From Albugo candida (Eukaryota), in contig JBDOQK010000038.1 in assembly GCA_040437565.1 (NCBI GenBank), positions 186,001 to 250,000 on the forward strand: a DNA stretch of 64,000 nt. The letters are read 5' to 3'. Below, piece by piece: positions 3,882 through 62,143 of this stretch. Every line of letters begins with the position of its first letter. The first letter of the stretch is position 1. The position numbers were made by a program, and so were the translations under genes. The notes under the pieces were generated by a model. That model had not been told where the DNA came from. It saw only the letters and a program-made list of their open reading frames with translations, and ran no database searches.

Positions 3882-4418
3882 TTATGATTTTTCCTGCAAA
3901 TTAATTATTTGCAAAAGCACAACTCCTTCATGCGTCCACATAGTTACAAAAGTACCGGATGTGTATGATGGATCCTCAATGATTTTAGCGATCTCGTTGA
4001 AATCGAAACATTTGTTGCCTTTCTCATTGTAGTGCGCTGCGTGAGTGAACCCAGGTATACAATCCACAGCAGCCGGAGTTGGTTGGTCCGCTGGAATGAA
4101 CAGGGTTTTAAACATCTGTGGACCGAATAAATTGCACTCACGTCCAGCGCTATAATAACGCAAACATTGTAGCTCAGCGCTACAACCTGTGAGTCGCATT
4201 CGCCATCTGCAAATTCTCCATCATCTATGAGCGTGCTGAAGCCATTTCCTGGTCCATACTGTACATTGTTGATGTTGACAGTGACGAAGAAACAATGCAT
4301 AGCTCCGTTTATCTCTGTTCCGGTAATTTAAGGGCATTTTCACACATATAGAAATCTGATGCCAGTGCCGTCCGATCAAAAGTGCGGGCTTCGACGTTGA
4401 AGATCATTTAATTGGAAT
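3882..4418 (-). pseudogene. Secreted PAN/CBEL-like family, locus A (5' end in gap; diverged near-duplicate of A')
   Basis: Near-identical to 4539-5106, with scattered substitutions, a ~30-nt deletion near 4327 and a 1-nt frameshift near 4186. Confidence 0.7.
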
Positions 4419-4538
4419 NNNNNNNNNNNNNNNNNNNNNNNNNNNNNNNNNNNNNNNNNNNNNNNNNNNNNNNNNNNNNNNNNNNNNNNNNNNNNNNNNN
4501 NNNNNNNNNNNNNNNNNNACGAATATACGAAATCGAAA

Positions 4539-5180
4539 TTATGATTTTTCCTGCAAATTAATTATTTGCAAAAGCACAACTCCTCCATGCGTCCACATGG
4601 TTACAAAAGTATCGGATGTGTAAGATGGATCCTCAATGATTTCAGCGATCTCGTTGAAATCGAAACATTTGTTGCCTTCCTCATTGTAGTGCGCTGCGTT
4701 AGTGAACCCAGGTATACAATCCACAGCAGCCGGAGTTGGTTGGTTCGCTGGAATGAACAGGGCTTTAAACACCTGTGGACCAAATAAAAAGCACTCGCGT
4801 CCAGCGCTTAAGTAACGCAAACATTGTAGTTTAGCGCTACAACCCTGTGAGTCGCATTCCCCATCTGCGAATTCTCCATCATCTATGAACGTGCTGAAGC
4901 CATTTCCTGGTCCATACTGTACATTTTTGATGTTCACAGTGACGAAGAAACAATGCATAGCTCCGTTTTTCTCTGTTCCGGTAATGGCGTTGGCATTGGC
5001 GTCAAAAATTTCATCGTAAGGGCATTTTCACACATATAGAAATCTGATGCCAGTGCCGTCCGATCAAAAGTGCGGGCTTCGACGTTGAAGATCATTTAAT
5101 TGGAATTAAAGACGACCCTGGACGACATGGTATCGTGACGAAAAGATGAGAGAAATAAATAGGAAGCATCGCGTCATCAT
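4539..5180 (-). pseudogene. Secreted PAN/CBEL-like family, locus A' (stop plus frameshifts)
   Basis: ATG 5180 gives the signal-like MMTRCFLFISLIFSSRYHVVQG*. Shifted frames then give SDFYMCENALTMKFL / DANANAITGTEKNGAMHCFFV (family N-domain motif), CDSQGCSAKLQC...EC (Cys module) and a reduced C-domain HYNEEGNKCFDFNEI. Confidence 0.75.
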
Positions 5181-5823
5181 TTTGGTCGAAGTAACTTTGT
5201 GTGAGCATTGTGCGTGGTGGTTGAAGACATGCGATTTGTGAAAGTGAAGATGTTGGTTAAGAACATTAAATTCGTGACTCACAAATGTATAACACGTAGC
5301 GATAACTGAGAACGTACGTAAACAGTATGGAGCATGCTCGCGCGAATATTGCTTGAATATAATATCATCAAGTGATTCTATTTCAAAACTTTGTCAAGTC
5401 GTTATTTTATTACATGCAATTACAACACGCTACGAAATGGTACAATGCGTAGAAAGGTTTGGATTAAGAATATGCGAATGTTTACTCTTTTTAAGAGGGA
5501 CACGCACGTTATTGGGTTTGTGACGGGCACGCATTTCTACCGTGCATAATATGGCTTACATGCTCAGTACAGTGTAATAGGAAGTATCGTGTGCCTTCTT
5601 TTCAGTTGTGAAGGGCAGCAATACATGTATGTAATATTACATATATGCATAAAGTATTCGATTGATACGTTGCTCCCTGTTTCCTTTCATCGTAAAAGAA
5701 GAAAAGGTATGTTAAAAGAGAAACGTTGAAAGCCTAACGTATTTGTGACGAGGAGGAGATGATATCGCCGATGATTTTCCATGTACCAAGTGTTGACAGT
5801 ATTTTAAAAATGCTTTTGTTGGT

Positions 5824-6152
5824 CTAGAGGTAGAAGTGAAAGGAACTACATTTGGCATTAACCTTCTTTGTCGACACGACTACATGCAGGTGCAACGGCA
5901 ATACAAATTTGACTATGTCACACTTCACAGGACGTCCGTCTGGTCCCACATGGTCACCGTACCTTCTCATCCCATCTGTCATGTTGTCATCAAACAGCCG
6001 TTCAGGTGAGGTATGATTTATGTATACTGTTGAATAAAAATATTCGTGGAATGGGTCGTGCAGTTGATACTCAAACCCTTGACGACCTGTCAGAAAGACG
6101 ATCTCTTCTAACACCAAGTAGTAGAACGATGATAAGTAAACTATGAAAGCGC
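5824..6152 (-). pseudogene. Possible decayed secreted protein, perhaps a distant PAN/CBEL-like family member
   Basis: An out-of-frame hydrophobic leader (RFHSLLIIVLLLGV) precedes ORF 5824-6117. EYFYSTVY...GRPVKCDIV loosely parallels ERFYNTIF...SVICEFI of locus G. Confidence 0.3.
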
Positions 6153-6989
6153 AATTGAAGTAGGAGAAAGCTTTACTGTTTCTTTCTACTACGTTTGTAC
6201 TTGACGCTATTAAGTATACACTCGTACCCAGCAGATTCTGTTAGCTTCTTGAAAAACAGATACAATGCCGGAGCCCTAATTCTATACAGTATCCTAATTG
6301 TCTGATTAGATGCGTCATAATATCAATTCATGTTTGATGAAAGACGGCTTAAAATCAAAACCAATCCGGATAAGATGACATGAAATGTCTAACGTCGAGG
6401 TATACAAGCTATACATCATCGAATGTATAGCAAGCTATTCCTCTTGCCGTCGAACGCCTTATTTGCAGACACATAATTGACTACGTTTCGATGAAGTNNN
6501 NNNNNNNNNNNNNNNNNNNNNNNNNNNNNNNNNNNNNNNNNNNNNNNNNNNNNNNNNNNNNNNNNNNNNNNNNNNNNNNNNNNNNNNNNNNNNNNNNGTT
6601 TGATGAAAGACGGCTTAAAATCAAAACCAATCCGGATAAGATGACATGAAATGTCTAACGTCGAGGTATACAAGCTATACATCATCGAATGTATAGCAAG
6701 CTATTCCTCTTGCCGTCGAACGCCTTATTTGCAGACACATAATTGACTACGTTTCGATGAAGTCTAAAGGTAGCGGACAATGAGTAGTAACAGAGCCACT
6801 ATTTCGGCCTGAGCGAAATTGCAATCCGCAATTGATTCAAGTAGAAGAGAAATGATGATATAAGGATACATCAAAGTCGAGTAAGATTTGTGAAGAAAAA
6901 TTGGATATGTGGAGACTCAAAAAGATAGAAACAATGGAAAAAAAAATTTGCAGGCAAACGAATTCGATTACACAACTACAACACGTCAC

Positions 6990-7649
6990 TCAAACCACGG
7001 GTCCGAATTCTCCAACACCTGAAAGGGAACCCGTGGAATGATAGGCTGCGATCACTTTGCGGTAGCATTTACATAGTTTTGTGTTCGCATTATAAGTGAA
7101 AAACGGCCATTGCTTGGTGCTGCTTCCAGCTCCACCCGAGCTGCATGTACATAGTCGCACATATGGAGCTGGAAAAAGACGGGTGTCCTCATCATAGGCA
7201 AAAAACGCAATGTCAATGAGATATTCTTGTTGTCGTGTACAGAGATAATCCTCTTTGATGTCAAAAAGAAGTGACGAGGTTAAGCATTGTCCAAAATTGC
7301 AACATCCAACATCCCTGCAACATCCCTCGGTGAAGCAAGAAAAACCTGTCGAACAGGCGGGGTCATCCACTGTGGAAACCACGTAACCAGGACCGAATTT
7401 GGTATTCTTGAGTTGTTTTTCATCCGCTAGTCCGATAGTACAGGTGTGATTATCTGCAATGTAATATTAATTTACTCCGAACACGCCAGAGTCGATAAAG
7501 CTATCACACAAACTTAGCGATTCCACTTGCAAAGTAAGCAAAAACGTATAGTCTGAGAGTTGCTTGGAAAGGTATCGTTTCAATAAAGCCGAAGCGTTGT
7601 CCGTGAGCGCAAGGAAAAGAAGGATGATATGGAATGATTGGCCGACCAT
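6990..7649 (-). pseudogene. Secreted PAN/CBEL-like family, locus B (single in-frame TAA at 7467-7469)
   Basis: ATG 7649 gives MVGQSFHIILLFLALTDNASA (signal peptide). ORFs 7467-7685 and 6990-7382 share a frame and are joined by the open YYIADNHTCTIGLADEKQLKNTKFGPGYVV. Cys module CSTGFSCFTEGCCRDVGCCNFGQC; C-domain FTYNANTKLCKCYRKV. Confidence 0.8.
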
Positions 7650-8596: not shown

Positions 8597-9487
8597 TCAG
8601 GAAGAGGATTGGTTAAAATTGTCATTATCTTGACGAATCGCCGCACGAAAAGATCCACCGACTCGATACAAATTAACTTTTGCATTGGCCAAAACATCGC
8701 TTCCAATTATCCACGCATTATTTCCATCATACCTCGTAAATTTTATATTGCTTTCGCTATTGATAGAAATCGTTTCTTTATGAGAAAACTTTACTTCTGA
8801 CCAAGCAGCATTATTCTTAATCAACTTGGTCCATTCCTCTGTCCGTGGGTGGTAGGTATTTTGCCGACGTTTAGATGCATGATCTCCAGGAATACTCAGA
8901 GCAAGGATTTCCGGGTAGTAAATGCCTTTAACACTTGGATCGAAAATTACAAAAGGAGCCGGTACTGCCATCAATTCTTTATCCTCCCTCAAAATTTTTA
9001 CGCTAAAGAACATAATTTTCCACGACGACAGTTTTGGCTCCAAGGGATACATGCTTGTTTCAATACACGCGCGTTGATTCGATATGAGAACGGATTGCAT
9101 ATGATCGAACGTGACACAAAATGTATCTCCTTGCTGCCAAATGGTATTTTCCGGCGTGAGTAAGAATGTGGACTTATCTAATAAAATCTTGGGGTCTTTT
9201 CGACATAGGAATCGTAATGACTCGTCCTTGTGAGGAATGACAAGTTTATTTGTGAACAAAACGATTTCAAACTCTCCAGCGTTAAAGTCATCGCCGTTGT
9301 GGACATTGCATTCCACGTTGATGGGAGGTATATCTTTTTGTGCAGGATTCTTAGAACGTTTGCGATGGAGGAGTTTGTCGCTTGAATGTCGGTTGAAGGT
9401 TTCAGGAGTGTCGAAAGGATCGTTTCCCTTAACGACGTATCGAAGAATTTGGATGAGAAGTACGGAGTAAATGCGGTATATCTTCAT
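8597..9487 (-). CDS. Hypothetical, probably secreted protein, 296 aa (effector candidate)
   Basis: Intronless ATG-started ORF; hydrophobic N-terminus MKIYRIYSVLLIQILRYVVKG; basic RKR stretch near residue 42; no domain recognised. Confidence 0.7.
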   Translation of the reverse strand: MKIYRIYSVLLIQILRYVVKGNDPFDTPETFNRHSSDKLLHRKRSKNPAQKDIPPINVECNVHNGDDFNAGEFEIVLFTNKLVIPHKDESLRFLCRKDPKILLDKSTFLLTPENTIWQQGDTFCVTFDHMQSVLISNQRACIETSMYPLEPKLSSWKIMFFSVKILREDKELMAVPAPFVIFDPSVKGIYYPEILALSIPGDHASKRRQNTYHPRTEEWTKLIKNNAAWSEVKFSHKETISINSESNIKFTRYDGNNAWIIGSDVLANAKVNLYRVGGSFRAAIRQDNDNFNQSSS

Positions 9488-10053: not shown

Positions 10054-10893
10054 TTAGGTCATGAGCATACGATTTTCTACCTTCAATTTGTCGGCGTTTC
10101 TATCCATAAAGTGCACGTCTAATGATGGAAGGAATGTATCAACCCAGTCCAAAGGATCCACAGTAGGCTCTATCGGCTGAAAGCGCAAGTTGTTCATGTG
10201 GCTGTACGTGAATTTAGGAAGCGGAGCGATCGGAAAAGGTTCCTCTTGATGTGTGCCACTCACATGATATGGATGATCATGTCTTGGGTGCACGTGTCCA
10301 TAAAACGAGGTTGGTGCACTTTGCGAGGACTCTGGATACGTGTATATATCCATCTTCGTATACGGTCGTGGCGGCAAGGAGAACGTTCGGAGGGGAATGG
10401 GGACCGGATAACGAGATGAATCGTTACGCTGCACGCTCCAGTCGACCTTATTTGGAGCCCTTAATTTCAATTCTATCGGATTGCGTTCACTGAGTGAGTT
10501 TGCTTCGAGAAGCTTTCTCGTGTGTGCTTTCATTTGTACCACCTTTTTTCGAGTGATGCGCCACGCCAATGTAGGATCATCTCGGACGAAAAATTTGTTC
10601 GAGAATGTGCAAATAGTCGCTTTCGATTTTGTCCATTTTCGGAAATTAAAATAGTTCAATTGACGCTGGAAACTTGCGTATTTCCTGTGTTTGAAATACT
10701 TTGGGAGAATTAAATCGGTCATCATGTCCATATCGAGAATTTCAAACGCCTTTCCGTCAGGAGTCCACCGCATGATATGTTTATTCTCATTATGTAATAT
10801 GGTACGAAGAGATTTGAGGAACGGGGCGACTCCGGGTTCAAGTTTACTGACGAGAAGCCGAGATAAATCCGGTGAGTCATTACGGTTATACAT
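10054..10893 (-). CDS. HSF-type DNA-binding transcription factor, 279 aa
   Basis: APFLKSLRTIL...IMRWTPDGKAFEI...ILPKYFKHRKYASFQRQLNYFNFRKW matches the HSF DNA-binding domain. Confidence 0.93.
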   Translation of the reverse strand: MYNRNDSPDLSRLLVSKLEPGVAPFLKSLRTILHNENKHIMRWTPDGKAFEILDMDMMTDLILPKYFKHRKYASFQRQLNYFNFRKWTKSKATICTFSNKFFVRDDPTLAWRITRKKVVQMKAHTRKLLEANSLSERNPIELKLRAPNKVDWSVQRNDSSRYPVPIPLRTFSLPPRPYTKMDIYTYPESSQSAPTSFYGHVHPRHDHPYHVSGTHQEEPFPIAPLPKFTYSHMNNLRFQPIEPTVDPLDWVDTFLPSLDVHFMDRNADKLKVENRMLMT

Positions 10894-11706
10894 TGTGGGG
10901 TATACGAGTTCTTCTTGTTACGTGGCAAAATGATGAATACATTGAAGGAGGGTCTATCGATAATACAATCGTATGAATCGTGAGGGAATGTGGGGAGTGA
11001 AACCGGGAAAGTTGTGATGGGATTGGCTTATGTTTGTTCAATTGTACAAGATTCGAATTCTGATTGGTTAAAGTTATATGGCTCCTCGTTGAATCAACCC
11101 ACACAGATCGTTGGTTGTATCTTGCGCAACATCTCACTACGTTATAGAACGTGATATCCCACGCTGTTAACCTTATTCGCGTGATGTTGTAGCAGTAATA
11201 GGAGATATCTCAGCGGTTTACGCGTTAAGAATGTTCGTAAACAAGCTCATAATACGCAAAAGGTGAAGACAATGTTATTGCCAAGTATAATTCAAGTGAA
11301 TATTACACAACTACCGGATCAAGTGGTTGCGTGAACACGATCACACAACAGAAAGTATGATGCGACACGCATGTAAGTGGTGCCCTAACCATACATGTAG
11401 CGTAAACGCAAGGATTTTATAAACTGGCTTTCGTCGCATCTTATGGCTCGACGCCACAAGAAAACTGGTTTTCAAAATCCGCCAATCACATGTTCGAAAC
11501 TGATGTAAGATAAAGTATCCGATCACTACCTTCCTATTGGTTCCATCCTTTTTTATTTATATCGTTGGAATGGAAACCGATCTCTGCTATGCGTAACGTA
11601 TCTACAGACAAAAGCGTATTTATCGAGTGATCCGTTACAAATTGCAAGTGTGCGTGTTTTTCACAACAACGTCCATTACATTTTTTCTGTCATTGCTTTT
11701 TGGCTT

Positions 11707-12123
11707 ATGACAGCTCCTGTACCAATCGGCGGGTACCTCTATAAACTCAAGTCGCACGACACACTGTTATCTCCACAATGGAATCGACGGTACTTTGCTT
11801 TGGAAGGCTCCAAATTGAAATATTACAATAAAGAAAACGCATCACAAGCTTCTAAAGTTATCGATCTGTTGAGTATTGATTCCATTCGACGGTTCGAGAC
11901 TGGCGATCACGGCGCTTACAGTTTTGTAATCAAAACACCAATGCGAAGTTACTTTTTACGTGCGGAATCAAAAGGTGATATGAAACGATGGGTACGCGGT
12001 CTTTCGGAGCAACAGGAACTTTGGAAAGAAGCGGCGACGAAAGGAAACGGCGATCAAGTGAAACGCAAGCCAAAGCATTACAGTGATCAGTATGCCGACC
12101 AAATACCGCGGGTGCGCGCCTAA
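11707..12123 (+). CDS. PH-domain protein, 138 aa
   Basis: ATG 11707; GYLYKLK...WNRRYFALEGSKLKYY...IDL...FVIKTPMRSYFLRAESKGDMKRWVRGL is a canonical PH-fold signature. Confidence 0.9.
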   Translation: MTAPVPIGGYLYKLKSHDTLLSPQWNRRYFALEGSKLKYYNKENASQASKVIDLLSIDSIRRFETGDHGAYSFVIKTPMRSYFLRAESKGDMKRWVRGLSEQQELWKEAATKGNGDQVKRKPKHYSDQYADQIPRVRA

Positions 12124-12173
12124 GTACGGTCAAAATGACGGAACAGAGTGTATGCTATAATATAATAGGACCA

Positions 12174-13661
12174 TCATTGTTGCGCGTTTGATCGATTTAT
12201 CCGATCCAGAGACTTGTATTCGAGTATCTTTTCCAATTGAGTGAGAAATAACGCGGTAAGGACGGATGGATACTCGTACGTTTCTCTGCTGATATCCGCA
12301 GCTTGAAAGTCACAAACCATTGCGGTCACGACAGTCACATTGGCGCATTTTTGAAGCTTTTCTATCGCAATCGGAGAAATCATTAATGTCACAAGAATGA
12401 TTGTTTTGATAGTGTTCCATTTTAACCAATCAATAGTCTTGCACGCTGATTGACCGCTTAACGTAACTAAATCGAGCAACAGGACGCAGTGATTTTCCAA
12501 GTTGGACGGTAAGGTTGACTGCATTAGTTTTAGTGTATCTTTCTTCCCGTCGTACGTCCCGTTCACCGATCTGATTCGGCCTGTTGCTACGGACGGGTCA
12601 AGATACTGAAGGGCGTTCAGCATCGGTGACCCGTTTTGCTCCAAAGAAACTCCACAATAAGGAAACGACATCACCAAGCCGCTTTTCATCTCTCCGTTGT
12701 CGAATAGGATAGCTGCTTCCTGATTGGGTACTTTTGAAATGGCTTCCTCCAATAACAATCGTATCACACGTTCGACGGTGCGTTCAAACATATTTGTGCT
12801 CATTGAGGAAAATTGTTTGAGTAGAAATGTAATTATTAATTTCATGGCCGCTGAATCGACTTGATGAAATTGACCGGTCGACCCGTTCTGTGTGGACCCG
12901 TATGACCATGTGGGTGTACCCAACTCGACTCGGATAGAACGTGTGAACTCGCACTTGAGTTCCTCTGCGGTCACGGACACTTCAGAGACGGTAGAGCACG
13001 GTGACTCGGGTAAGTTCGGATTCGTCATTCTTCCGACTTGTGTGTGTTTCGGATGTTTTGCAAACGGGTTTTTATTGCGACGAGATAAAACCTGGGTTCG
13101 GTTTTTATTCAAATTACATATTGCGGCTCGACTGACTTGATACTCCTTGGCCAAGTCGGCTTGTTTCTCTCCGTTTTCAATGCGTAATAAAATGGTCCGA
13201 CGATCGATTTCGCGAAGATATCGCGACCGTTTATTGCGTTTTCTTACATTCGTTTCGTTACGATTTATCGGTATAATAGATAGATTGGCCGTATCTGATT
13301 GGGACAGAACGTTGAGCGACCGTTTACTACCGAGTTCGCCATCTTTGTCGGAATTCTGATAGAGCTTGCCGATCGGAAGAGCATAGGATCGCTTCTTGGC
13401 CCACTCGTGCACCATATCCTCATTACAAGCCTGCACGGATGGACGCGGAACAAGAGCTGGCACGCTCCTATTTTGTAAAGCTACTTCCAGTTCGTTGGAA
13501 TGATATTCTTCACGACCACACAAAATAGTAGACAATGCAGGTAATGTTGCTCGAAATTGATCATTTGGTTCTGATTTTAGTGTTCGCGTGGAGGTGAACC
13601 TTAATTCTGGATCTGGATCGTTAGAGGGCATTGTGGTATCTGTACGCGGTAACCGATCCAT
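12174..13661 (-). CDS. CENP-B/Psq-type HTH fused to a degenerate uracil-phosphoribosyltransferase-like domain, 495 aa
   Basis: HTH: YLREIDRRTILLRIENGEKQADLAKEYQVSRAAICNLNKNR. UPRT-like: FERTVERVIRLLLEEAIS...CGVSLEQNGSPMLNAL...LPSNLENHCVLLLDLVTLSGQSACKTI...IILVTLMISPIAIEKL...VTVVTA. Confidence 0.85.
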   Translation of the reverse strand: MDRLPRTDTTMPSNDPDPELRFTSTRTLKSEPNDQFRATLPALSTILCGREEYHSNELEVALQNRSVPALVPRPSVQACNEDMVHEWAKKRSYALPIGKLYQNSDKDGELGSKRSLNVLSQSDTANLSIIPINRNETNVRKRNKRSRYLREIDRRTILLRIENGEKQADLAKEYQVSRAAICNLNKNRTQVLSRRNKNPFAKHPKHTQVGRMTNPNLPESPCSTVSEVSVTAEELKCEFTRSIRVELGTPTWSYGSTQNGSTGQFHQVDSAAMKLIITFLLKQFSSMSTNMFERTVERVIRLLLEEAISKVPNQEAAILFDNGEMKSGLVMSFPYCGVSLEQNGSPMLNALQYLDPSVATGRIRSVNGTYDGKKDTLKLMQSTLPSNLENHCVLLLDLVTLSGQSACKTIDWLKWNTIKTIILVTLMISPIAIEKLQKCANVTVVTAMVCDFQAADISRETYEYPSVLTALFLTQLEKILEYKSLDRINRSNAQQ

Positions 13662-15067
13662 TCACGGTACTTAGTATTGAATCGCGCAGTCAGCACTTGA
13701 CTCGAATTTCGATTCTGGTAAAGAGGATCCTTGAAAGTAAAGAGAAGTAACTCTTTGGGCCAGGTGACAAAGCGCGTTGGACAATCTGTCTACAAGTAAA
13801 TTAAGTAAATTAATCGAAACGAAAACGCGGCGTCGCTAAGTGCGTTTCACGTCGACGAAAAAAAATTGGTGCGAGGGGTAGGCGAGCCGAATTTCGTCAA
13901 ATTTCTCCCAATCCAATTATCGTACAATTTTCACTTTACGCGCATTTAAAAATCATGAAGATTGTTGTGACATCATTCTTACATAACCGAAATGAATTGG
14001 ATGACGAGCAAATACCATCGCGCGACAAATCCAAAGCGTAGAAAGCAGAGAAGACTGATGCATTTTGCGCGTCATACAGCACAACCCACCGAGAGTCATT
14101 CATCCATGCCGAAAGGGCGTGAGACGGATGCAAAACCGTGGTATCAGACAGCCATGCAAGCCCATTCAGAGTCGTTGGATATCATTATGTTAGAGTATGG
14201 TCGAAATTCCGTACGGAATTCGTTCGGGAAACATTCTTTTGCCGAAACGAGTGATGGTCCTTGTGCGGCAACATATGGGGCACAACAGCGGTGTTCTTTT
14301 ACACCCACTCACAAAGCACTGTCACATGAAAAATCGAAATGCAACTCTATTTCGTCCAATCAGAACGTACCTCGGATACTTTATTACAAGTAGGTATTTT
14401 GAAATAAAAGGCCGTGCCACTTTACGCACATTCATATTTTACAAGCAATGGTGAAGCAGTGAGGAAAACGAGTGCCGTCGATTACGAAACGACTAACTCA
14501 CATATAGATGGATTGGAAGAGATAAGGTCGATTGTACCGTGTCTTTTGCATGAAAATCTCATTTGATGGTCATAATTATCAATTTAGAGAGGCTACCTAT
14601 GTTGCATCAAATGCTGAAGAAAATCGAATGGTACAGTCTGACCTCTATTATCAGATACTAATTTGTAGAGGCTTTCTTAGATTGACGCAAACAGCTCTTT
14701 AGAGCATTCTATTGAAAAAAACACGTATCAAGATACATCTTTGCAATATCGATCAAATTATGCAACCTCTCAATACTTGCCTGAATCACCACCATCAATT
14801 ATTGCATCCAATCGATCAATTGTTTCCGGTACAAAGTCGTTTTGGAACAGGCATTCTTGCTCAGTGTCCTTCCAGCAGTGTTTGAATGCAATCAAAAAGA
14901 ATCACAGAATACTGAAAGGAGTCAAAAAGGACCGATAAAGTGGCCGAAGCATACATTCTCTCTAAGCTCGGAAAAAGACGATCTAACGAAACCGTCCAAT
15001 GAGCTTTCACGAATGCATAGCGCTACGAATTTCAAATCGGTTCGACTTGTTATGAGTATGTACTGAG

Positions 15068-15454
15068 ATGATCCTACATGCATTCTCACAGAAAAAAATA
15101 TTGGAAGAAACTAGCCAAGAGCTAGTGTCCGAGACGTCGATCTCTCAGAATAGCGTGCTCGAACGGCCGCCTCCAAATTGGCAAAGCAAACTCTATATCC
15201 TCCATTCCGACATTGTACGGTTTGGACGGCATTCAGGCAAAAGTGAACAAAGCTCTGAATGGAAAATGAGCACCCGAACACGTCGGATATTCCACCAATG
15301 CGCAAGTAGTGTCGATCTGTCAAGTACGGGCGCCCATAACGACGAACTTGCGCAAGTGCAAAGTGTCGCAATCTACTTGAGCACCATCATTCAGTGCTAT
15401 CAGATAGAGGCCACTATTACAACGAAAAGGGTAAGTGGATTCAGTATAAATTGA
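15068..15454 (+). CDS. Possible hypothetical protein (may be one exon of a gene at 14.7-15.5 kb)
   Basis: 128-aa ATG ORF that fills the space in a gene-dense island and ends 15 bp from the convergent neighbour; no domain recognised. Confidence 0.3.
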   Translation: MILHAFSQKKILEETSQELVSETSISQNSVLERPPPNWQSKLYILHSDIVRFGRHSGKSEQSSEWKMSTRTRRIFHQCASSVDLSSTGAHNDELAQVQSVAIYLSTIIQCYQIEATITTKRVSGFSIN

Positions 15455-15469
15455 GTGCACGATTTGTTA

Positions 15470-16051
15470 CTATTCCGAATGAAAGTAATCAAGCGCCACA
15501 AGCATGAGTGCATATGGAATGTTTTTTCGAAAGTATGAGACTTTAAGGAATGGAATCGTCGCAGCGGCTGTAGCCACGCTAATGTTGATCGCGTCTATGC
15601 GCGTCTCTTGCTTGAATTCAAGCGCTGCTTTGACGCCTTGGTACGTCAAGAAGAAGCTACGATCGAGTGATAAGTACGGAATAGTACCTAAGAGATAAAA
15701 TGAAGCTGTGTACCTTGAAAAAGAAGCGCCGGTCCACACGGCCGTTTTTGCGATCGCGTTGGTTGTGACAGACGACACTTTGCCGTACTTTTGATAAGTA
15801 CGGATTCCATCAACTGGACATAAATCGAGTTTCATTAAGTGTCAGGTCATCATATTCGACTTACTTGCTCCAAACATTGCGCCTGTAGGAAAGCCGACAA
15901 GCGCGCCAAAAAGTAGCCTATTATACATAGCGGTAGACAGTACACTTTTTGGCTCTATTTTGTCGGTAAAACTATTTTCGACGGGTTCGTCAGCATTCGA
16001 TTTGGTTGTCGATTCATCATAGGACGACCACCTTTGGGAGTCGATGGCCAT
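15470..16051 (-). CDS. Tim17/Tim22/Tim23-family-like small membrane protein (intron 15814-15864; probable in-frame intron 15657-15713)
   Basis: A 51-nt GTAAGT...TCCAG intron joins the two ORFs in frame (GAMFGA|IDGIR). The GxxxG helix GALVGFPTGAMFG, then GASFS..FFLTYQGVKAALE and DAINISVATAAA, follow the Tim17-family layout. Confidence 0.7.
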
Positions 16052-16198
16052 CGATCGTAGCTGTGTAAAGTTCGCCCCATGATCGTCTAAGTACGTTTGA
16101 CAATTGTCTCATTGATAACAACGCACTATATTCAACCTATTCTAGCTCTATCATGAAGGTTATTTGGTCCAACTCGATTGCTGAACATTACTGCAAAT

Positions 16199-17072
16199 TC
16201 ACAGAAAGGTATACGCGATCGTGATTGCGGCCACGACTAAATGACACGTGATACTTGCTAAAAACGCATAAAACCAGTATAAAGTGCGTTTTCCTATACA
16301 CTTTCCGGTCCATGGACAATGATGATCTAGTTCCAGTATACACGCATTGCAATCATAACAGTGTGATGCATTGACTGGTCGCGATATGTGACAACTTGCT
16401 ACAGTATACACTTAGCGCAACGCATACACAACACTATACAATATACATACCGCATACGATCATCTCTTGTACCGGTTCGTCTTCTGATTCCATCGGCGCG
16501 GTGAGCAATGTTACTGGTGGACTTCCAGGAGTGTATACCTCAAGACTGATGTTTTTTCGCTCTTCAAAAATCATTCCGGGATCACTACAAGCTGTCATCG
16601 AGAACAATATCAGCGTCAGGAATGTTGTCACTGCCAATGCAGTTTGACACGCAAGCTCTATGCTTGTTTCTCCCAATTGCCTACATATACTATACATAAG
16701 AGATGATCTATGTCGAGACGAGTATACATCTTACGTCACAGATGCTACAATAATTATTGGTGCCAAAATGATGGTATACGTCAGAAGCATCCAAAATCGA
16801 TCGGGTCCGATGTGACATGTCGTCGGAAAGTATCCAATGTAACCAGAAGTATACGTGCATAGTACCCGCGTAGAGCCGATCGGTATACACCACCTCCATC
16901 TCACGCGTTTCGTCTTCGATCCACGTTTAGGTGCATTCTCTACTTCTAACACTGTTTCTGGCATATGTGCTACTGCGGACACTCTGCTTGTAGGCGTTTG
17001 AGACAGAGGTGTTGTGCTATTTGTCGTGGCATTTTCACTAGACGACACATTCATTCGATGATAGTTGACCAT
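16199..17072 (-). CDS. DHHC palmitoyltransferase, 255 aa, 3 exons (17072-16735, 16680-16451, 16398-16199)
   Basis: CHISRPVNASHCYDCNACILELDHHCPWTGKCIG is the DHHC Cys-rich domain; TACSDPG motif; GT-AG introns of 54 and 52 nt keep the frame (768 nt total). Confidence 0.92.
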
Positions 17073-47536: not shown

Positions 47537-50500
47537 TGTAATCTTACATGAGATGTCGTATTCATGCAATTGAACACGTTTACCAAAAAATGTTTGTTTC
47601 GATTTTCTTCTTTCCAATCTCGCAACGCACACAATCAACGCTTCTACTACACGATGGTCCAAGTTATTTCATCTATGCTTGACAGCATATAATTGCCTTT
47701 GTTCTCACCAACTAGATCTGTACTTTGTCCATCATGTATCCGAATGCGCACTCAATGTGTTCGAACGAGATATATGTAAAACATTTGCACTTGACGTATG
47801 ACTATGTGGATTGCAACATCAGCGACAAGTTTCGATTCTATTTATGATTGAATACGTGGCACAACTTGGGTTTGATGCGCACATTGGATACTGCCTCACT
47901 GGAATGTTTCTTTGTTACTGCAATCAGACTAATCGACTTCTCGACATGCATAGCCATCTTAAGCAATTAGCATACATAAAAAGTAATTTTAATGAAATCA
48001 CCTGCAAGAATTGAGAAGTTGTGCAGCTATTGCCAATCTTCTCTTTCTTCTGCTTTAACGCACCCGAGTACGCGGCAGTTCCCAGCATGTAGTGACTATA
48101 TGATGGTCAGAGACACAATGATCACCAGATTGGTGTCCTCAACACTGGCCTGAAGATACGATTGTGGCTAGGAGTAAGATGGGAGGTGCATTTCACTTGT
48201 ATGCATCAAAATCACTATCAGATACAAGCCATCACGCTTGTATCAAAATATACCCCTCTTGATTTTGTAAAAAGCACCTTGAAGTAGCTTTATGCGGATT
48301 TAATGAATTTTATTACTTGTTTCCTATTACGCTGGAAAATCAAGAGTTTGTGAACCCTTCCAATACTGTAGTAAGATTGGAACAATGACGATATAAATAT
48401 CCAAGCGTTGGCTGAAGCGGTAGCTTAGAGTATGAAGGAGTGGAATTCCGAAGTAAGTCGCCTATTAGCTCATCGTGAAACTGCATCTTGATCGCATAGA
48501 TACTGTGATGTAGAACTACGCAATAGGTATTACCAAACATAACGGTCCAATACAGCAGTGATTCGATCAAATTATCCTGTCTACTGTAGTGATCAGCAGT
48601 AGAAGAACACTTTCGTGCCAGCACTACACGAGAAAAAAAGGTTTGTGGCTGTCGTTTTTGGTCTCATTTGCGCTGAAAATATTTCCGATCTCTTTGTGCA
48701 TTCTGCATCTTCGAATGAACAAACATTCCATCCATTATCATATACCAAACCCGCAGCGCGTCTTATTCGAGGATACAGTGAAGCATGGCTTCGTTCTCCT
48801 TGCCGTACCCAACGCAAATGATGTACTAAATGATTATAAATATTCAACAACAGCACATATCACAATACTGGGACTCAAATCTACTTCTTTTGAGTAATTT
48901 TGATCAATTGGGCTCATAGATCATTGCGTTCAGGTATCGGCGACGTAGTGCAATATTTCCCTTCCTCCTACCCTTCAACTGACCAGTCAGTCATACTCAC
49001 CACCACGGGTAATGATGGATGTGGATGGCGTGACGGATTTTGCAACAACTTGAAAACTTTCCTGGGATTACAGTATCTTGTATGCTACATTTACAAGCAG
49101 AGGATGCCTACAGTATGTGTATGTTGTTCTCTATAGGGATTCAGATTTTGCGAAAGATCCAATTGGTCTGACTTTGTGATGCAAATAAAACCTTTAAGAA
49201 TAACAGTACCCAATAAGTATCTCACCATCTTGTAATGGCTATACTAGATGACTTTTAGTTTTCGTCTGCCGCCCTCTAAACACAAACAACTATGTATAGC
49301 ATGATAACCAGGATGCAGGACTTTATCTGCGCTCTCGGACTCAATGTTTTTGTTCAGCTGTGAGATTATGACATCACCATCGTTGCCATTTATTCGTAAG
49401 ATCAGTCCAAAAAGGTAAGAAACGGCAAGAAAGAGAAGAAAATTTAGGTGGCGACCTCCGTTTTTTGGCGCGGTAAAGCATGCGATTCCATCTTTTACTA
49501 TGTCGAAGATATCCGTTGAGGATGGTTTGAAGCTCAAAGAATATGGTGGACGGTCGTGCTGATACAATTCATTTTGTTACCATCGCTATGATATCCACGA
49601 GCGTGTTATCGCGATCAGCCGGTACGTCTAGACCTCGTTCTGGGTTGTTGAATCCTATTGGAGCCCGCTTGACTGGTACGAAAAATCAAAAACCTTTATA
49701 ATTATATTTATACTCCAGAGCAGTACGTCTCATTGCACAGCCCTAAGCGAGGATTCCATCTCTTCGTTTGGTCAATATTACATCACACGAAAGGTTTTTT
49801 TTGGTCTACATGATCTTTTCTTTCAAAAATCCAGGTAGCAGCAAATGAATCAAGTTTGCAATGGAATACCGATATCGACTATTACGAAGCCCCAGTTTCA
49901 CTCAAAGTCAAGCTAAGCACCAACGGCATTGGTCACTCATTTGACCTTTCGATAAAATGACCGTATGATTCCATCATTGCACGCCATGAAGCTTGATGAT
50001 AATGCTCTTGTTCAAGTAGAAATATTGTTGCTTATAGGTTCCAGATTCTTGAGCCGGACCAGTGATGCAGTTAGCTATTCGAAACACAAGATACCCATAA
50101 AGGTGATCAATTTGTCTGTTTGGGGAAAGAGACGAAATCATTACCACAGGTACATTGCTTTGACTGGGTGACCAAGCTGTTAGAGTACCTAAATTGAGAA
50201 GTTTTCACGTATACAGAATCTGTTAATGCTCTGAAAATCGGTGTACTGTTATCTTAAGAAAATGCAAGTGTTTAATCTCACTCATGCACGCTTAGTATCC
50301 TTCCTAACTCGTCCGTTTTGTCGCCATTAATTAGTACGGATTGCTTATGTTTATAGGTTACTTGGAATTTAGCGCAGAAGGATGCTTCCAATGAAGATTT
50401 TCAGGAACATGATACTTCACTGAATAATACCCCAAGTAGATATCAAACAAAAAAGGCGTATGAGGGAAGATATGAACTACTGAAGTATCGAATTCAGAAC

Positions 50501-54305: not shown

Positions 54306-55165
54306 ATTTGGGCAATATTTGTCCAATCCGCCGTCGTCGTCGTTACTCTGTTTCAGCACGCATTCTGTGATGTCAAACTACTGGAAAATGCTCAGTTTAC
54401 TGGGCTAAGTATAAATTCACTTACTGTGAACGATGTTCGAATATGCATCAACGCCTTTCAAGCCAACTTTTTCAACGCATCTGCAATGTATCCGATCTTT
54501 CTTTCTGCCACCAGCATTGTGTGCAAGGTCATGATTCTCACCTCAGAGCCAACAGTCAATCCAACCCCGAATGNNNNNNNNNNNNNNNNNNNNNNNNNNN
54601 NNNNNNNNNNNNNNNNNNNNNNNNNNNNNNNNNNNNNNNNNNNNNNNNNNNNNNNNNNNNNNNNNNNNNNNNNGATGTTCGAATATGCATCAACGCCTTT
54701 CAAGCCAACTTTTTCAACGCATCTGCAATGTATCCGATCTTTCTTTCTGCCACCAGCATTGTGTGCAAGGTCATGATTCTCACCTCAGAGCCAACAGTCA
54801 ATCCAACCCCGAATGCTGGCCATTCAATATACTATATCACTACACGTACACCCGATCCACCTCCTGGTCCATGCAACTTGAATTTGTGTGGCGGAAGTAA
54901 TCAATGCATTCCTCTCATCCCCGAAGGAGAAACATGTTCACCATCGAAGGGATACCTTATCAATGTTTTGATCTTTGGAATTGATCTTGACCTTCCAACG
55001 AAAAAGCCTACTATCGACGATTGCAAAGCTCACTGCATGCTTCATACAGCTTGCGAAGGCACCTCCTACAACATAATCAATACAGAATATCAAATGAAGG
55101 GTCTCATTATTAACCTGCTACGTTTTGACGATATGCATTCCGCCTATGTGGGAATTCAGACATAA
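54306..55165 (+). pseudogene. Secreted PAN/CBEL-like family, locus J (open 205-codon frame after collapsing the 242-bp gap-plus-overlap, but the start codon is ATT)
   Basis: CTG-ATT-TGG-GCA-ATA-TTT-GTC-CAA-TCC sits where paralogues have ATG; FVQSAVVVVTLFQHAFC signal; RICINAFQANFFNASA...VCKV; DDCKAHCMLHTACEGTSYNIINTEYQMK. Confidence 0.8.
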
Positions 55166-56042: not shown

Positions 56043-56620
56043 ATGATGATGATATTTGGCCAATGCGTGACACTTGACTTCCCACCATCACGCATTCAGT
56101 GATCTCGTCTGCTTGGATAAAATACCGAGTCTTTTAAGCCAATCAGACAAACGGTTGTGAAAGTGTATTTCTGGACGCAACTGTAATCTCGCGGAGATAG
56201 GATTCTCGAAACGAAATTATAAGCGAGCTCATAAAACTCACCTCTCAATCAAATGTTTCCAAAATTTCGCATTGTGGCATTCCAGTATGTCAAGACGATA
56301 CCAAAATATTCTATTATCCTTCTGTCTCGGTACATGAGGTTTTTATAGTGCAAAAGATCGATGTATTTCGGTCGTGGACGGAGAAGCGAAATGCGACCAT
56401 CGAAAGGGTTACACCGCATGGACGTCCGAATTGTTGAATTGATCTCGACGCCGTTAGGAAAGCGTCCACTTTAGGCGATTGCAAAGTTTACTGAGTGAAC
56501 GATGAAAGTTGCGTGGGTAGCTTCTACACCACACTCAATCCAGAATGTCAAATGAAGGCGCAGGTTTGAACTCTCGTATGTTTTTACGGTATCCATTCCA
56601 TGAATATAAAGTTTTAATAA
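56043..56620 (+). pseudogene. Secreted PAN/CBEL-like family, locus K (heavily decayed)
   Basis: MMMIFGQCVT...HAFSDL start; LGDCKVY*VNDESCVGSFYTTLNPECQMKAQV near 56471-56570; family upstream motifs at 55509 and 55837. Confidence 0.75.
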
Positions 56621-58830
56621 AAAGATTGTTGATCTCTGCTCGATGTCGTTGTTTCGATACGCCTGTTACTCTTTCAAAATCTAATATATTGCCAAAGCTT
56701 ATACAACAGTTACATACAGCAATTTCACAATGACATTGAGGCACTCAAATGAATTAAGACGAAGCAAAGAGTAAGCGGAAATGCTAAGATTATAACCCGC
56801 TTGGATCAAGTGGGTGAAGGATGCGTAATTTGCATTCATTCCTTATTCCACCAGCTAGCAGCTGGCCTTTGTCAATCGTTTGGACGGTATTTGTTCTTAA
56901 GCCGTATTTTTCCGGCTATTACATAAAACTGAAATTAGCAAGCTGATTACTTCAAATATAGTCAAATCTATCAACTAGTTCACAGAGTGAATTCCATTCG
57001 AGGCGCTTCTGTTCGATCAGAATCGTGATCATTCTCGCGTTAATATTATTGGATACTNNNNNNNNNNNNNNNNNNNNNNNNNNNNNNNNNNNNNNNNNNN
57101 NNNNNNNNNNNNNNNNNNNNNNNNNNNNNNNNNNNNNNNNNNNNNNNNNNNNNNNNNAAGGATGCGTAATTTGCATTCATTCCTTATTCCACCAGCTAGC
57201 AGCTGGCCTTTGTCAATCGTTTGGACGGTATTTGTTCTTAAGCCGTATTTTTCCGGCTATTACATAAAACTGAAATTAGCAAGCTGATTACTTCAAATAT
57301 AGTCAAATCTATCAACTAGTTCACAGAGTGAATTCCATTCGAGGCGCTTCTGTTCGATCAGAATCGTGATCATTCTCGCGTTAATATTATTGGATACTAT
57401 GCAAACCACTTCGATATATGACCTGATCATTATATTCACTATGGTACATGAATTGTAAGCTCGCTAGTGAGCGCTACACTTGCGAATTTCTGGTTTCGAG
57501 AGTATTTTCACATTTCATGTCCACCACACAATTGCAGTTCCAGAAGGAATGGTCAGTGTGAACACCCTAGGTACGGATTTGTCATCCTATCTATCTGTTC
57601 ACCACAGAAAAAAGACAATGCACGCGAAAGAGCAATATCGAAAGGAATTCATACTCGTTTTTAAGAGCGCATATAAGCCTTTCTCACGGTACTTTAGGCA
57701 CAAAAACGCAATCATCTAAGACATATACACTCCATCCCACCAACCGGTCACGTGATCATACTATCAATCCATCGAGTCGACCCTCACCATTCTTCCCTCC
57801 AGAAATCTAACAAGTACCGCGAATGCTCTATAGCTTATCATCCTAGCAATACAGAACACGACTTTACTCTCTAGACCGTCTGCTTTGAACTTATTTGTGC
57901 ATTTTAGCTTCAGTACAAATATTCCAATGCTAGCGAAATTTGTCCGATCCATACTTCTGACCACCACTCTTTTCCAACATGCATTCTGTGACGTTGTATA
58001 TATCAAAAACGCTTCGTACAACTTTATACCAATAGGTTCTATGCTGTAAGTGAAGTTCGCATATGCGTCAGCCTCCTCCAAATAAACTATCTGGGTGCGA
58101 ACGCATTCAAGCCGATACCGTTAGGGACCCAGACGTATTGCGTCTTTTTTAATCTGCAGTCAAATGTGACCGCCAGTTCTGAGTCGGGTGGAGGCTTTCC
58201 GATATATTATATAACAGCACCAAAATCATGCAAACATCATGATTCATGCCCTCATGATATTTGTTGTGGAAANNNNNNNNNNNNNNNNNNNNNNNNNNNN
58301 NNNNNNNNNNNNNNNNNNNNNNNNNNNNNNNNNNNNNNNNNNNNNNNNNNNNNNNNNNNNNNNNNNNNNNNNGAGCGCTACACTTGCGAATTTCTGGTTT
58401 CGAGAGTATTTTCACATTTCATGTCCACCACACAATTGCAGTTCCAGAAGGAATGGTCAGTGTGAACACCCTAGGTACGGATTTGTCATCCTATCTATCT
58501 GTTCACCACAGAAAAAAGACAATGCACGCGAAAGAGCAATATCGAAAGGAATTCATACTCGTTTTTAAGAGCGCATATAAGCCTTTCTCACGGTACTTTA
58601 GGCACAAAAACGCAATCATCTAAGACATATACACTCCATCCCACCAACCGGTCACGTGATCATACTATCAATCCATCGAGTCGACCCTCACCATTCTTCC
58701 CTCCAGAAATCTAACAAGTACCGCGAATGCTCTATAGCTTATCATCCTAGCAATACAGAACACGACTTTACTCTCTAGACCGTCTGCTTTGAACTTATTT
58801 GTGCATTTTAGCTTCAGTACAAATATTCCA

Positions 58831-59438
58831 ATGCTAGCGAAATTTGTCCGATCCATACTTCTGACCACCACTCTTTTCCAACATGCATTCTGTGACGTTG
58901 TATATATCAAAAACGCTTCGTACAACTTTATACCAATAGGTTCTATGCTGTAAGTGAAGTTCGCATATGCGTCAGCCTCCTCCAAATAAACTATCTGGGT
59001 GCGAACGCATTCAAGCCGATACCGTTAGGGACCCAGACGTATTGCGTCTTTTTTAATCTGCAGTCAAATGTGACCGCCAGTTCTGAGTCGGGTGGAGGCT
59101 TTCCGATATATTATATAACAGCACCAAAATCATGCAAACATCATGATTCATGCCCTCATGATATTTGTTGTGGAAATGATCAATGTATATCAACCATCGA
59201 CGGTGGTCCAAGATGCCTCAAATCCAGTGATTACCTCATCAACGGTTTATTTATTGGAGATGATTATGGCCTTCCTATGATATTGCCCGTGTATACTGCT
59301 TGCAAACAAATGTGCGTGGAAACTCCAGAGTGTGTGGCTTATGTATACAACACACTGAACAGTGTATGTCAAAGGAAGACTACAAGTACATTTGTCATGC
59401 GTCTTGACGATGTCTACTCGGGTGAAATCAAACGCTAA
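58831..59438 (+). pseudogene. Secreted PAN/CBEL-like family, locus L (single -1 frameshift near 58945; 5' part also at 57927-58272 across the gap)
   Basis: MLAKFVRSILLTTTLFQHAFCDV...GSML* shifts to VSEVRICVSLLQINYLGANAF...YCVFF...SCPHDICCGNDQC...FIGDDY...TACKQMCVETPECVAYVYNTLNSVCQRK...VYSG. The span of 608 nt is one base short of 203 codons. Confidence 0.88.
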
Positions 59439-60193: not shown

Positions 60194-60283
60194 GTAAATA
60201 ATCATAGTATAAATGTCCTAGTTTCTGAATACCACGTAAATAGTTATAGTATAAATGTCCCAGTTTCTGAATACCACGTAAAT
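60194..60283 (+). repeat. 42-bp tandem duplication (2 copies)
   Basis: ATAGTATAAATGTCC(T/C)AGTTTCTGAATACCACGTAAAT at 60204 and 60246. Confidence 0.9.
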
Positions 60284-60347
60284 CTGATAAAAAAATTATC
60301 ACTTACAAGGATAGTCACATCTTTCATGTACAAATCGAAATGATCGT

Positions 60348-60952
60348 GTCGCAGTCATTCTCACGATAAAATCCGAGGTTTTATACAAAAGGCTTATAGA
60401 TAAGATTTCGTCATGATAAACTCTACGAAAAGCAAAGAGTCCATCCGCAACGGTCGGATTTCGTTACGGTCCGTACGAACAGATCAGTCACTTATGGCTC
60501 CGTTCATGTGCACCACACACTATAGTCGTTACATGCAATAAATCTTGGGAACACCTTAGATAAGGAACACATCATCCTATTTGTGTGTTCCAATACAAAA
60601 ACAAAACCATCATTTCGTACAAAACTCATTCACAAGCGACGTCGCACGCCAACTGCAAAACCGAGATTCAACCTAATTCGATGCGACCACACCCTTTTGC
60701 ACTGTTCCCGCTATGTGGCGAGTACAAAATAACCGCAATCATCTGATCTTTCTTAAATACACACACCTTCTCACCGCATGATGAATTAGCAATCTGTAGA
60801 GTCCAGGCTTATATCTTTCCGTCGAGACAATGCGGGCTATCAACAGGGGCGCACTATAAAATATCTTATCCGCAAATAAAATAAGACTGTACGCTCTCCA
60901 CCGACTACGTTTATCTCAGTGGTTTGTCCAATCCGCGATTCTTCAATCACTC
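60348..60952 (+). pseudogene. Locus M: family upstream module followed by only a ~30-bp signal-peptide relic
   Basis: Motifs GTCATTCTCACG (~60354), AACCGCAATCATCTGATC (60731) and CACTATAAAA, then TTTGTCCAATCCGCGATTCTTCAATCACTC (FVQSAIL..), matching the start of loci C and J. Confidence 0.65.
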
Positions 60953-61521
60953 ATAGTGAAGTGAAATTCTACGAACTCGTAGCAATCAACGGATAAAACA
61001 TCCTACTCGTTCTCGTTGCGAAGTTCTTGGAACCGAAACTACAACCAAGCAGACACACACTAATCTCGTACTTTACATTTAATCTGTCCGCGGTATCAGT
61101 TGCTGCCATGTGGCTCTCTGCGCCATCTCTCCTACTTGTCTTCTTTTCTCATAAAGAACATTAGCTAGCAACGTGTAAAACAGTCAGAATCTATTTGCAT
61201 ACTTGTACAAATGGCTACTATCGTACCGAACTTCTCAAACAAAGTAAGCAAAAACCGCGTCCTATTTTCCATGACTTGCCAGGAAAAGCCAGATTGTATA
61301 CTGCGCAATTGATTACCAACCGATAGCGTGCCCTATACCAGCTATTACGTGACCATGACGAACCCAAGTGTACCCATCCATTCCTAACCCATGTGTACCC
61401 ATGTCTTTACATCCAGGAGCTTGTAAAATTCCAAACCATATGTTTGTTTACCACCCACGCATTTCGCGGACACAACTTTATCTCATTCTTCAATTTACTC
61501 TCAAGCGCATCAACCTTCACA

Positions 61522-62143
61522 ATGTTAAACTGATCGTTCCAATTCATTTCACTCATCCTTTCGCTAGCGGGCATTACGCCGAAACATGTCACTCGTTATC
61601 CTCCTACCTCGACCAAAATCACGAACCTGAAAGTATGCTTACGATGCTTGCAGACAACGTCTGCATGAGCGACAATGTCCTTTCAATGGAGGTGTTAGGT
61701 GCTAATGCATACAACATCATCGAAACAAACTCAGGTGAAAAAGTCAAGTGCGAATTCTTCAACGTGGACACTGATAAGGCAGAGGTTACTACTGGAGCAG
61801 GAAGCAGCGTTTACGGAAAACATTACCCGAAATGAATCCTGGTTTTACGACATTAAAGGGATGTAGCACTGGAAAATAGTGTGAGGAATCTGACATATTG
61901 GCTACACCTACTTGCAAGAATAACGGGACCATGGTCTCGAATGTGGCGTTCATCTATAAAGACGAATTTGCGTTCAGAATTACAGCGAGCCAGTCTCTTG
62001 AGAGTTGTATAGCTGAATCTTCGCGTCTATACATCACTTACGGTGGCATTACGAAACTCTGTCTTGAGACTGACGGATTTCATGCCGTCATTGCGGATAA
62101 TGGAATCAAATCTGGGAATCGTACAAGTAGGTTTGAGAAGTGA
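61522..62143 (+). pseudogene. Secreted PAN/CBEL-like family, locus N (stops and frameshifts)
   Basis: INR+FPR-like CTCATTCTTCAATTTAC at ~61482; MLN*SFQFISLILSLAG; ADNVCMSDNVLSMEVLGANAY...VKCEFF; SQSLESCIAESSRLYITYGGITKLCLE...IKSG. Confidence 0.75.

Follow-up and report, generated by a model that had tools for sequence, protein, structure and literature searches.

What does a run of mostly broken, cysteine-rich coding sequences in the white rust Albugo candida represent, and what would its intact members do? The question is raised by a stretch of 64,000 nucleotides (contig JBDOQK010000038.1 of assembly GCA_040437565.1, positions 186,001 to 250,000 of the forward strand), here called the window and numbered from its first base. 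An initial annotation, made from the sequence alone, had read about 15 loci of the window as one rapidly turning-over family of secreted proteins of about 200 amino acids with a PAN/apple domain, similar to the oomycete protein CBEL. The explanation that we favour, with a probability of about 0.62, is that the window holds an Albugo-specific tandem and decaying array of genes for secreted double-apple proteins of about 200 amino acids, which would act as extracellular binders at the pathogen wall or at the host interface.

A divergent family with one layout

A family hidden Markov model (HMM) was built from 15 proteins, none of them encoded in the window, and run on all 2751 six-frame stop-to-stop open reading frames (ORFs) of the window. 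This external-only model finds 11 distinct loci with at least one fragment at E ≤ 0.01, the fragments being colinear along the profile, while 20 shuffles of the 2751 ORFs give no match at that level (best 0.022). The secure loci lie at about 4.5–5.4 kb and 7.0–7.65 kb, both on the minus strand, and at 23.35, 25.6, 29.0, 37.8, 40.4, 47.0, 54.3, 58.8 and 61.4 kb. The family is real, and consists in the window of 11 secure loci and three or four relics or doubtful ones. The initial count of about 15 was inflated by three copies that are assembly artefacts, as described below.

The common layout that had been proposed for the loci is reproduced by the alignment consensus: a signal-peptide-like N-terminus, an N-domain with the pattern CxNxLQxxFxxANAF...CxF, a CC(G)xxQC...C module and a C-domain with Cx3Cx5C...CQMK. 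Five positions are invariant in the 16-protein alignment (C47, C73, C110, Q115 and C126). In the same alignment the paralogues are 16–30% identical to the protein encoded at 23353–23958. For pieces from the window the values are 13–39%, and orthologue-like pairs are 72–85% identical.

Two of the 11 secure loci are intact, the number that had been counted initially. The first (23353–23958, plus strand) encodes the 201-amino-acid protein P0001, with a predicted signal peptide, N-domain, cysteine-rich linker and PAN/apple C-domain; it has two close relatives, 85% and 82% identical. The second (40365–41317, plus strand) has 203 codons after a gap at 40853–40952 and the repeated sequence 40953–41193 are discounted. 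Its frames agree across this artefactual overlap, the overlapping translations are identical, the HMM matches it with E 1.5e-29 and 2.4e-13, and the protein P0010 is 46% identical to it.

The proteins are predicted to be secreted. Of 24 N-termini of the family, 21 have a hydrophobic core, with maximum mean Kyte–Doolittle values of 1.4–2.8, while six of seven housekeeping controls stay below 1.0, and residues 1–17 of the structural model discussed below are unstructured. None of the motifs RxLR, dEER, LFLAK or CHxC occurs in the 17 family proteins, and five pieces from the window also have neither RxLR-dEER nor LFLAK. The pattern CxxCxxxxxG is found in three of the 17, at residues 165–171 inside the PAN C-domain. 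It is limited to one clade (P0087, P0106 and P0153, relatives of the 7-kb locus), where its occurrence is probably a coincidence.

A profile from an alignment of the 23353 protein, its two close relatives and pieces from the window was scored against 1.84 billion representative proteins, giving 295 matches at E ≤ 0.001. Among the best 150 of these 295, 16 match beyond the C-domain region, 13 of them in a single continuous match to most of the profile and three as short pieces; the remaining ones match only profile positions ~113–203 and are multi-repeat PAN proteins. Word-based homologue searches gave three, six and two proteins, and so under-sample the family relative to the exhaustive profile search. 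The named members are P0153 ('hypothetical protein ABG067_005237 [Albugo candida]'), P0129 ('unnamed protein product [Albugo candida]') and P0012 ('AlNc14C96G5867 protein', Albugo laibachii Nc14), which confirms the oomycete origin of the family. Judged by these named matches the family looks restricted to Albugo, in line with the lineage restriction proposed initially. P0153 is not encoded in the window, where its best match is 32% identical, and the family continues outside the window, probably on the same contig.

In public records, PAN domains are already annotated for one member. A full-text literature search, which took in the available text of PMC3206522, PMC3130010, PMC3532174, PMC12503489, PMC13585763 and the preprint 10.1101/2021.03.29.437041, found no published description of the family, so that the suggestion of an undescribed family stands within that search; the supplementary secretome-cluster tables of these papers, which it did not cover, may list members by cluster number. 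The PAN domain itself was thus already known; new are the domain architecture, the confinement to one genus and the decay of the cluster.

Domain fold and likely place of action

The C-domain is a PAN/apple domain, as had been proposed, according to Pfam, a profile search of Protein Data Bank (PDB) sequences and a Foldseek search with a predicted structure. In Pfam, where PAN_1 (PF00024) has a curated cut-off of 21.4 bits, the 23353 protein scores 24.7, the C-terminal part of the 29.0-kb locus 30.0, and the close relatives P0002 and P0003 23.9 each. The 58.8-kb locus stays under the cut-offs with both PAN_4 (21.2 bits) and PAN_1 (19.9 bits), and the intact 40.4-kb gene has no PAN_1 match in the Pfam search; altogether, PAN_1 matches 9 of 16 family proteins at E ≤ 0.01. 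Against PDB sequences, the family profile finds apple domains of factor XI (E 3e-9) and of Toxoplasma TgMIC4 (E 1.5e-8), as well as plasma kallikrein, Sarcocystis SML-2 and Eimeria MIC5, all at profile positions ~116–202. An Atlas search points the same way, in that 25 of 30 feature matches share one Pfam set and both of its displayed rows have PAN_1 in 85–89% of members.

An AlphaFold model of the 23353 protein, made with a 28-row alignment, has a mean predicted local distance difference test score (pLDDT) of 86.8 and a predicted template modelling score (pTM) of 0.80, and only residues 1–17 are disordered. Foldseek matches this model in the PDB to the apple discs of prekallikrein and factor XI (E 6.6e-6 to 6.5e-5 over 191–202 columns), to SML-2 and the apple-5 domain of TgMIC4 (root-mean-square deviation, rmsd, 1.3–1.4 Å over 63–64 columns, at 17–19% sequence identity), and to the PAN domain of hepatocyte growth factor. 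The conserved cysteine pattern of the C-domain, Cx3Cx5C...C, is consistent with the predicted apple fold, a helix on an antiparallel sheet with two core disulfides.

The same order of secondary structure, strand-strand-helix-strand-strand-strand, appears in both halves of the model. Together with the Foldseek matches, this suggests two apple-like domains joined by a cysteine-rich hairpin, and the whole-model matches to prekallikrein and factor XI over about 200 columns likewise point to two consecutive apple-like domains. The N-domain, which has no Pfam PAN match, is therefore a probable cryptic second apple-like domain of the model.

The closest known systems resemble the family in different respects. 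Plasma prekallikrein and factor XI are the top whole-model Foldseek matches and also the top PDB profile matches; however, they are vertebrate proteins in which four apple domains are fused to a protease, and since the rmsd to them exceeds 8 Å, the two domains must be arranged differently. Set against these proteins, the predicted disulfides of the Albugo family are one in the N-domain and, in the C-domain, the two core disulfides plus the first cysteine. The best single-domain structural matches are the apicomplexan microneme lectins (Toxoplasma MIC4, Sarcocystis SML-2 and Eimeria MIC5; profile E 1.5e-8 to 7e-4), which are likewise small parasite proteins of tandem apple domains and likewise secreted, as predicted here, but belong to another lineage and share little sequence. 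MIC4 has six apple domains.

The comparison with CBEL holds in part. The CBEL (cellulose-binding elicitor lectin) proteins of Phytophthora and Albugo are, like the predicted products of the array, secreted, non-enzymatic oomycete proteins with PAN/apple modules, two per protein. According to the available text of PMC3206522 and PMC3532174, CBEL interleaves CBM1 cellulose-binding domains with its apple domains, and two or three CBEL proteins are reported for A. candida in that of PMC3206522 and PMC13585763. In contrast, when 22 sequences were searched with Pfam, neither the translations of 16 family loci nor the two relatives among them matched CBM_1 at E ≤ 1, and 16 family proteins gave no match at E ≤ 0.01. 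The first domain of the Albugo proteins is unrecognisable as PAN by sequence, and the CC-QC linker stands in the place of CBM1. Because CBM1 is missing, the family is not CBEL, with which it was compared by description only; of the 'CBEL-like' label, the PAN part remains.

Taken together, the proposed mechanism would run as follows. A tandem, segmentally duplicated gene array would give rise to secreted proteins of about 200 amino acids, each built from a signal peptide that is cleaved off, an N-domain that has a single disulfide and is apple-like in the model, a cysteine-rich hairpin linker CC-x3/4-QC...C and a bona fide PAN/apple C-domain. The mature protein would most likely be an extracellular binder of carbohydrate or protein without enzymatic activity, by analogy with the microneme lectins, the PAN modules of CBEL and factor XI, and it would work at the pathogen wall or at the host interface. 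Ligand binding and a host-directed role are suggested by these analogies.

The same family and fold could instead serve the pathogen itself, in the assembly of the spore or hyphal wall, in self-adhesion or otherwise in development, with decay reflecting redundancy. A role in the own wall has already been proposed for CBEL and for fungal PAN-module wall proteins, one of which, according to the available text of PMC3338822, is a cell-wall protein required for sclerotial development, and the absence of the translocation-type motifs from all 17 family proteins would also fit. However, the family has many small and very divergent members, most of them pseudogenised, and copies intact in one genome are broken in another, which is more typical of host-facing families; furthermore, no CBM1 or other wall-anchoring domain was found in Pfam. 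Neither point is decisive, and we consider this reading, the main alternative, unlikely, though worth keeping in view.

We also consider a bolder version of the explanation that we favour, which we hold to be doubtful. The proteins would be Albugo-specific lectins of the apoplastic or haustorial interface, made of a cryptic apple, a cysteine-rich linker and a canonical apple. Their copy-by-copy loss would be driven by host recognition, and the sets of intact and broken copies would differ by race and help to set host range, in parallel to the CCG effectors of Albugo and mechanistically apart from them.

Broken copies, assembly gaps and duplication

Apart from the two intact genes, the secure loci have premature stops or frameshifts, or have lost their start or other sequence, with the locus at 54306–55165 open and uncertain. 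At 4519–5393 (minus strand) there is a pseudogene with at least two frameshifts, in which a start with a signal-peptide-like stretch lies near 5183, an N-domain piece at 4937–5095 and the rest at 4542–5027 in another frame (HMM E 4.6e-6; hhalign to the family, E 2.6e-4 over 130 columns; tblastn with P0010, E 7e-7). The locus at 6990–7649 (minus strand) retains the full layout in one frame with a single in-frame stop at 7467–7469 (HMM E 7e-18 and 1e-9), and P0087 aligns with it over residues 1–212 at 41% identity (E 4e-42).

The other secure loci are on the plus strand. The pseudogene at 25592–26215 consists of four colinear pieces in different frames, that is, three frameshifts, one of the pieces being the signal peptide (HMM E 0.011, 6e-4 and 0.012). 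The locus at 29021–29773 stays in a single frame without frameshift and has two in-frame stops (29228–29230 and 29339–29341); the protein P0006 is 72% identical to it over all 202 residues and is uninterrupted. The C-terminal end of this locus (29627–29773) extends about 48 codons beyond the end of P0006. A decayed duplicate of this locus at 37817–38433 has at least one frameshift and at least three in-frame stops. At 46980–47433 lies a partial duplicate of the intact 40.4-kb gene (HMM E 9e-19), without the 166 bases that in the original hold the start and signal peptide, and with its 3' end lost in a true gap at 47434–47533. The layout is complete at 58831–59438, where one frameshift falls at about 58944–58950, outside any homopolymer run (HMM E 1.4e-4 and 2.9e-34). 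The last pseudogene, 61359–62143, has an N-domain piece at 61629–61832 and a degenerate C-terminal piece at 61880–62140 in another frame (HMM E 1.1e-8 and 0.016; hhalign E 0.013), and no signal peptide was found in it; P0020, a 66-amino-acid protein of another record, is 97% identical to it and has the same terminal stop.

The locus at 54306–55165 is open across an artefactual overlap at 54574–54815 (HMM E 3e-18 and 1.6e-37). The codon at the position of the paralogues' start (54306–54308) is not ATG, and one conserved cysteine of the PAN domain is replaced. P0005, which is 79–81% identical in two pieces, is open and keeps this cysteine. The locus may be functional via another start, and its status is uncertain.

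Shorter remains accompany these loci. The two relics that had been noticed exist: linker and C-domain pieces at 24669–24912 (plus strand), a weak case (HMM E 0.03; tblastn with the 54.7-kb protein, E 6e-4), and a C-domain relic at 56338–56614 (plus strand; tblastn with P0005 residues 134–192, 44% identity, E 1.6e-12). At 30684–31180 (plus strand) only flanks are left of a unit of the 40.4-kb type, matching the 5' flank at 46.9 kb and the 3' flank at 41.3/47.5 kb; the coding part is gone, and neither tblastn nor the family HMM gives a protein-level match. The open 190-amino-acid ORF at 42669–43241 (minus strand), initially counted as a member, is doubtful: it has an N-domain-like stretch (hhalign E 2.3e-4, probability 45%, 51 columns) with a different cysteine module, no clear signal peptide, no PAN C-domain recognisable by Pfam, and an HMM E of 0.04 that is equalled or beaten in 2 of 20 shuffles, and is thus not statistically secure.

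Introns and an alternative genetic code were considered for these interruptions and rejected. At the 58.8-kb locus the two frames overlap and there is no spare sequence, despite a GTAAGT-like string, and at the 29.0-kb and 7-kb loci the frame is constant throughout. Reading the in-frame TAA as sense fails as well, since the neighbouring genes read under the standard code and relatives have sense codons at these positions.

The breaks have to be read together with the state of the assembly. The window contains 16 gaps of exactly 100 N, of which four lie before 8 kb, eleven after 21.6 kb and one inside the block of housekeeping genes between. At 11 of the 16 (1784, 4419, 6498, 37158, 39799, 40853, 50533, 54574, 57058, 58273 and 59700) the sequence running up to the left edge of the gap appears again at its right edge, over 39 to 804 bases; ten pairs of flank copies are 99.4–100% identical, and one is 94.7% identical over 468 bases and 100% over 90 bases. 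These are contig ends that overlap and were joined by a spacer instead of being merged, or else haplotypes. Because the flanks are duplicated, the doublets 36407–37157 = 37258–38008 and 57469–58272 = 58373–59176, and 3862–4418 as a copy of 4519–5106, are not separate loci. Specifically, 3862–4418 (minus strand) repeats the first pseudogene, either as a contig overlap that was not merged or as another haplotype; it is 94.7–100% identical, lies flush against the gap 4419–4518 and has one frame break more; 36966–37157 repeats the 5' part of the 37.8-kb locus, and 57927–58272 the 5' half of the 58.8-kb locus. Two further overlaps split single genes (40612–40852 = 40953–41193 and 54432–54573 = 54674–54815).

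Such a region invites the explanation that most apparent pseudogenes are artefacts of poorly assembled, repetitive and heterozygous sequence, and that the true array is mainly intact. The number of gaps and of unmerged overlaps speaks for this, as does the overlap that differs by about 5%, as two haplotypes would, and the genes at 40.4 and 54.3 kb look split and become continuous once the overlaps are discounted. A tract of 241 bases, 100% identical between the 40.4-kb gene and its partial duplicate and ending exactly at both gaps, is also suspicious. However, the three breaks at 7 and 29.0 kb are in-frame stops without change of frame, which indel-type errors do not make, the frameshift at 58.8 kb lies outside a homopolymer run, and the loci at 25.6 and 37.8 kb each have several breaks and low similarity throughout. 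In addition, the partial duplicate lacks 166 bases including the start, P0020 from another record has the same truncated end as the last pseudogene, and 2267 neighbouring housekeeping codons are unbroken. We therefore regard a mainly intact array as improbable.

The history of the array was followed in a tree of 27 rows, made up of 16 further proteins and the 11 window loci, in which each break was written as X; the relics and the 42.7-kb ORF were left out of it. The window copies fall into at least three deep clades with long branches. One clade contains the loci at 23.3, 29.0, 37.8, 54.3 and 58.8 kb, beside which the 25.6-kb locus is placed with negligible support (0.11), and the A. laibachii protein belongs to the same larger clade (support 0.98); a second groups the 40.4- and 47.0-kb copies with P0010, and a third the 7-kb locus with P0087, P0106, P0153 and P0129. 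The 37.8-kb locus groups with that at 29.0 kb, and with their flanks the two units share 70.6% identity over 1.6 kb; the 40.4- and 47.0-kb units are 85–100% identical. Excluding artefactual copies, 39% of the sequence from 21.6 to 64 kb has a second copy within the window, compared with 0% of the housekeeping block, so the array grew by segmental duplication.

Several features of the duplicated sequence may be recorded here. From about −70 to +60 around the starts at 23353, 29021, 37817 and 58831, some 70 bases upstream of the start are conserved, 67–76% identical among the four copies, and may be a shared leader or core promoter. The identical tract mentioned above (40612–40852, 40953–41193 and 47193–47433), next to which the 5' parts are far more divergent, is either gene conversion or assembly collapse. 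A correspondence over several kilobases at 66–76% identity links 30684–35693 with 41298–42562 and 46891–50416, downstream of different family units. A 195-base repeat (2439–2633 and 27310–27503, 87% identical) is unrelated to the family. Pfam assigned no family above cut-off, and no transposon domain, to 14 other ORFs of the window.

The pattern of broken copies here and intact relatives elsewhere fits the birth-and-death evolution suggested initially. Rapid turnover, on the other hand, is only partly shown: by their identities and long branches the paralogues are ancient, and only the orthologue-like pairs are close. The comparisons point to an old family with very divergent paralogues, in an array that is now losing members, and selection would be a candidate cause of the decay.

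The array adjoins ordinary sequence. In the window, whose G+C content is about 40%, long uninterrupted ORFs are confined to ~8–21.6 kb. The housekeeping block at 10054–21478 consists of ordinary genes without repeats or breaks, among them those for an HSF-type DNA-binding protein, a PH-domain protein, a UPRTase-like protein with an N-terminal extension, ribosomal protein L10a, a FYVE-like protein and a 583-amino-acid coiled-coil protein; seven uninterrupted ORFs make up the 2267 codons cited above. Beside the array, a 296-amino-acid ORF at 8597–9487 (minus strand) may encode another secreted protein; its N-terminus resembles a signal peptide (mean hydrophobicity 2.35), and Pfam assigns it no family above cut-off.

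Meaning for the white rusts

Within the genus, the obvious comparison is with the CCG (formerly CHxC) effectors, which are also cysteine-rich, secreted (as predicted here), expanded and polymorphic. In the available text of 10.1101/2021.03.29.437041 this class is defined by CxxCxxxxxG, and in that of PMC12503489 a different module fold is described. The CCG proteins may be delivered into host cells, of which there is no sign in the array. In favour of the family being a branch of these host-translocated effectors, the literal CCG tripeptide is common in the linker and three of the 17 proteins have the defining pattern. Such a descent is nevertheless very improbable indeed, since all three matches lie inside the PAN C-domain of one clade, 14 proteins are without the pattern, CHxC is absent from all 17, and the CCG class is reported, in the part of the literature available, with a ferredoxin-like N-terminal fold, whereas the Foldseek matches here are apple domains.

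A number of points weigh against an Albugo-specific, decaying array of double-apple proteins. The N-domain shows no similarity to the C-domain in hhalign, and its profile gives no match at E ≤ 10 among PDB sequences; with sequence searches blind to it, its apple-like nature rests on one predicted model, and a 12-row alignment gave an unusable model (pLDDT 38). The hydrophobicity test for secretion is crude, and one control ORF passes it too. Restriction to Albugo rests on the three named proteins. No part of the window is assembled as poorly as the family region, in which 15 of the 16 gaps lie, so that some frameshifts could be assembly or polishing errors. The 54.3-kb locus, open like its relative P0005, may be functional, and the count of dead copies would then be weakened.

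For annotation, the lesson is that 11 of 16 scaffold gaps duplicate sequence, so that gene models come out split or doubled. For the PAN module, the N-domain would show that it is able to drift past recognition by sequence. The effector repertoire usual for oomycetes is reduced in white rusts, and research at present centres on the CCG class. A second family that is limited to the genus, clustered and predicted to be secreted, and whose binding fold is recognisable, would provide concrete candidates for the host interface in the genes at 23353–23958 and 40365–41317, and its mixture of intact and broken copies would offer markers for comparing races.

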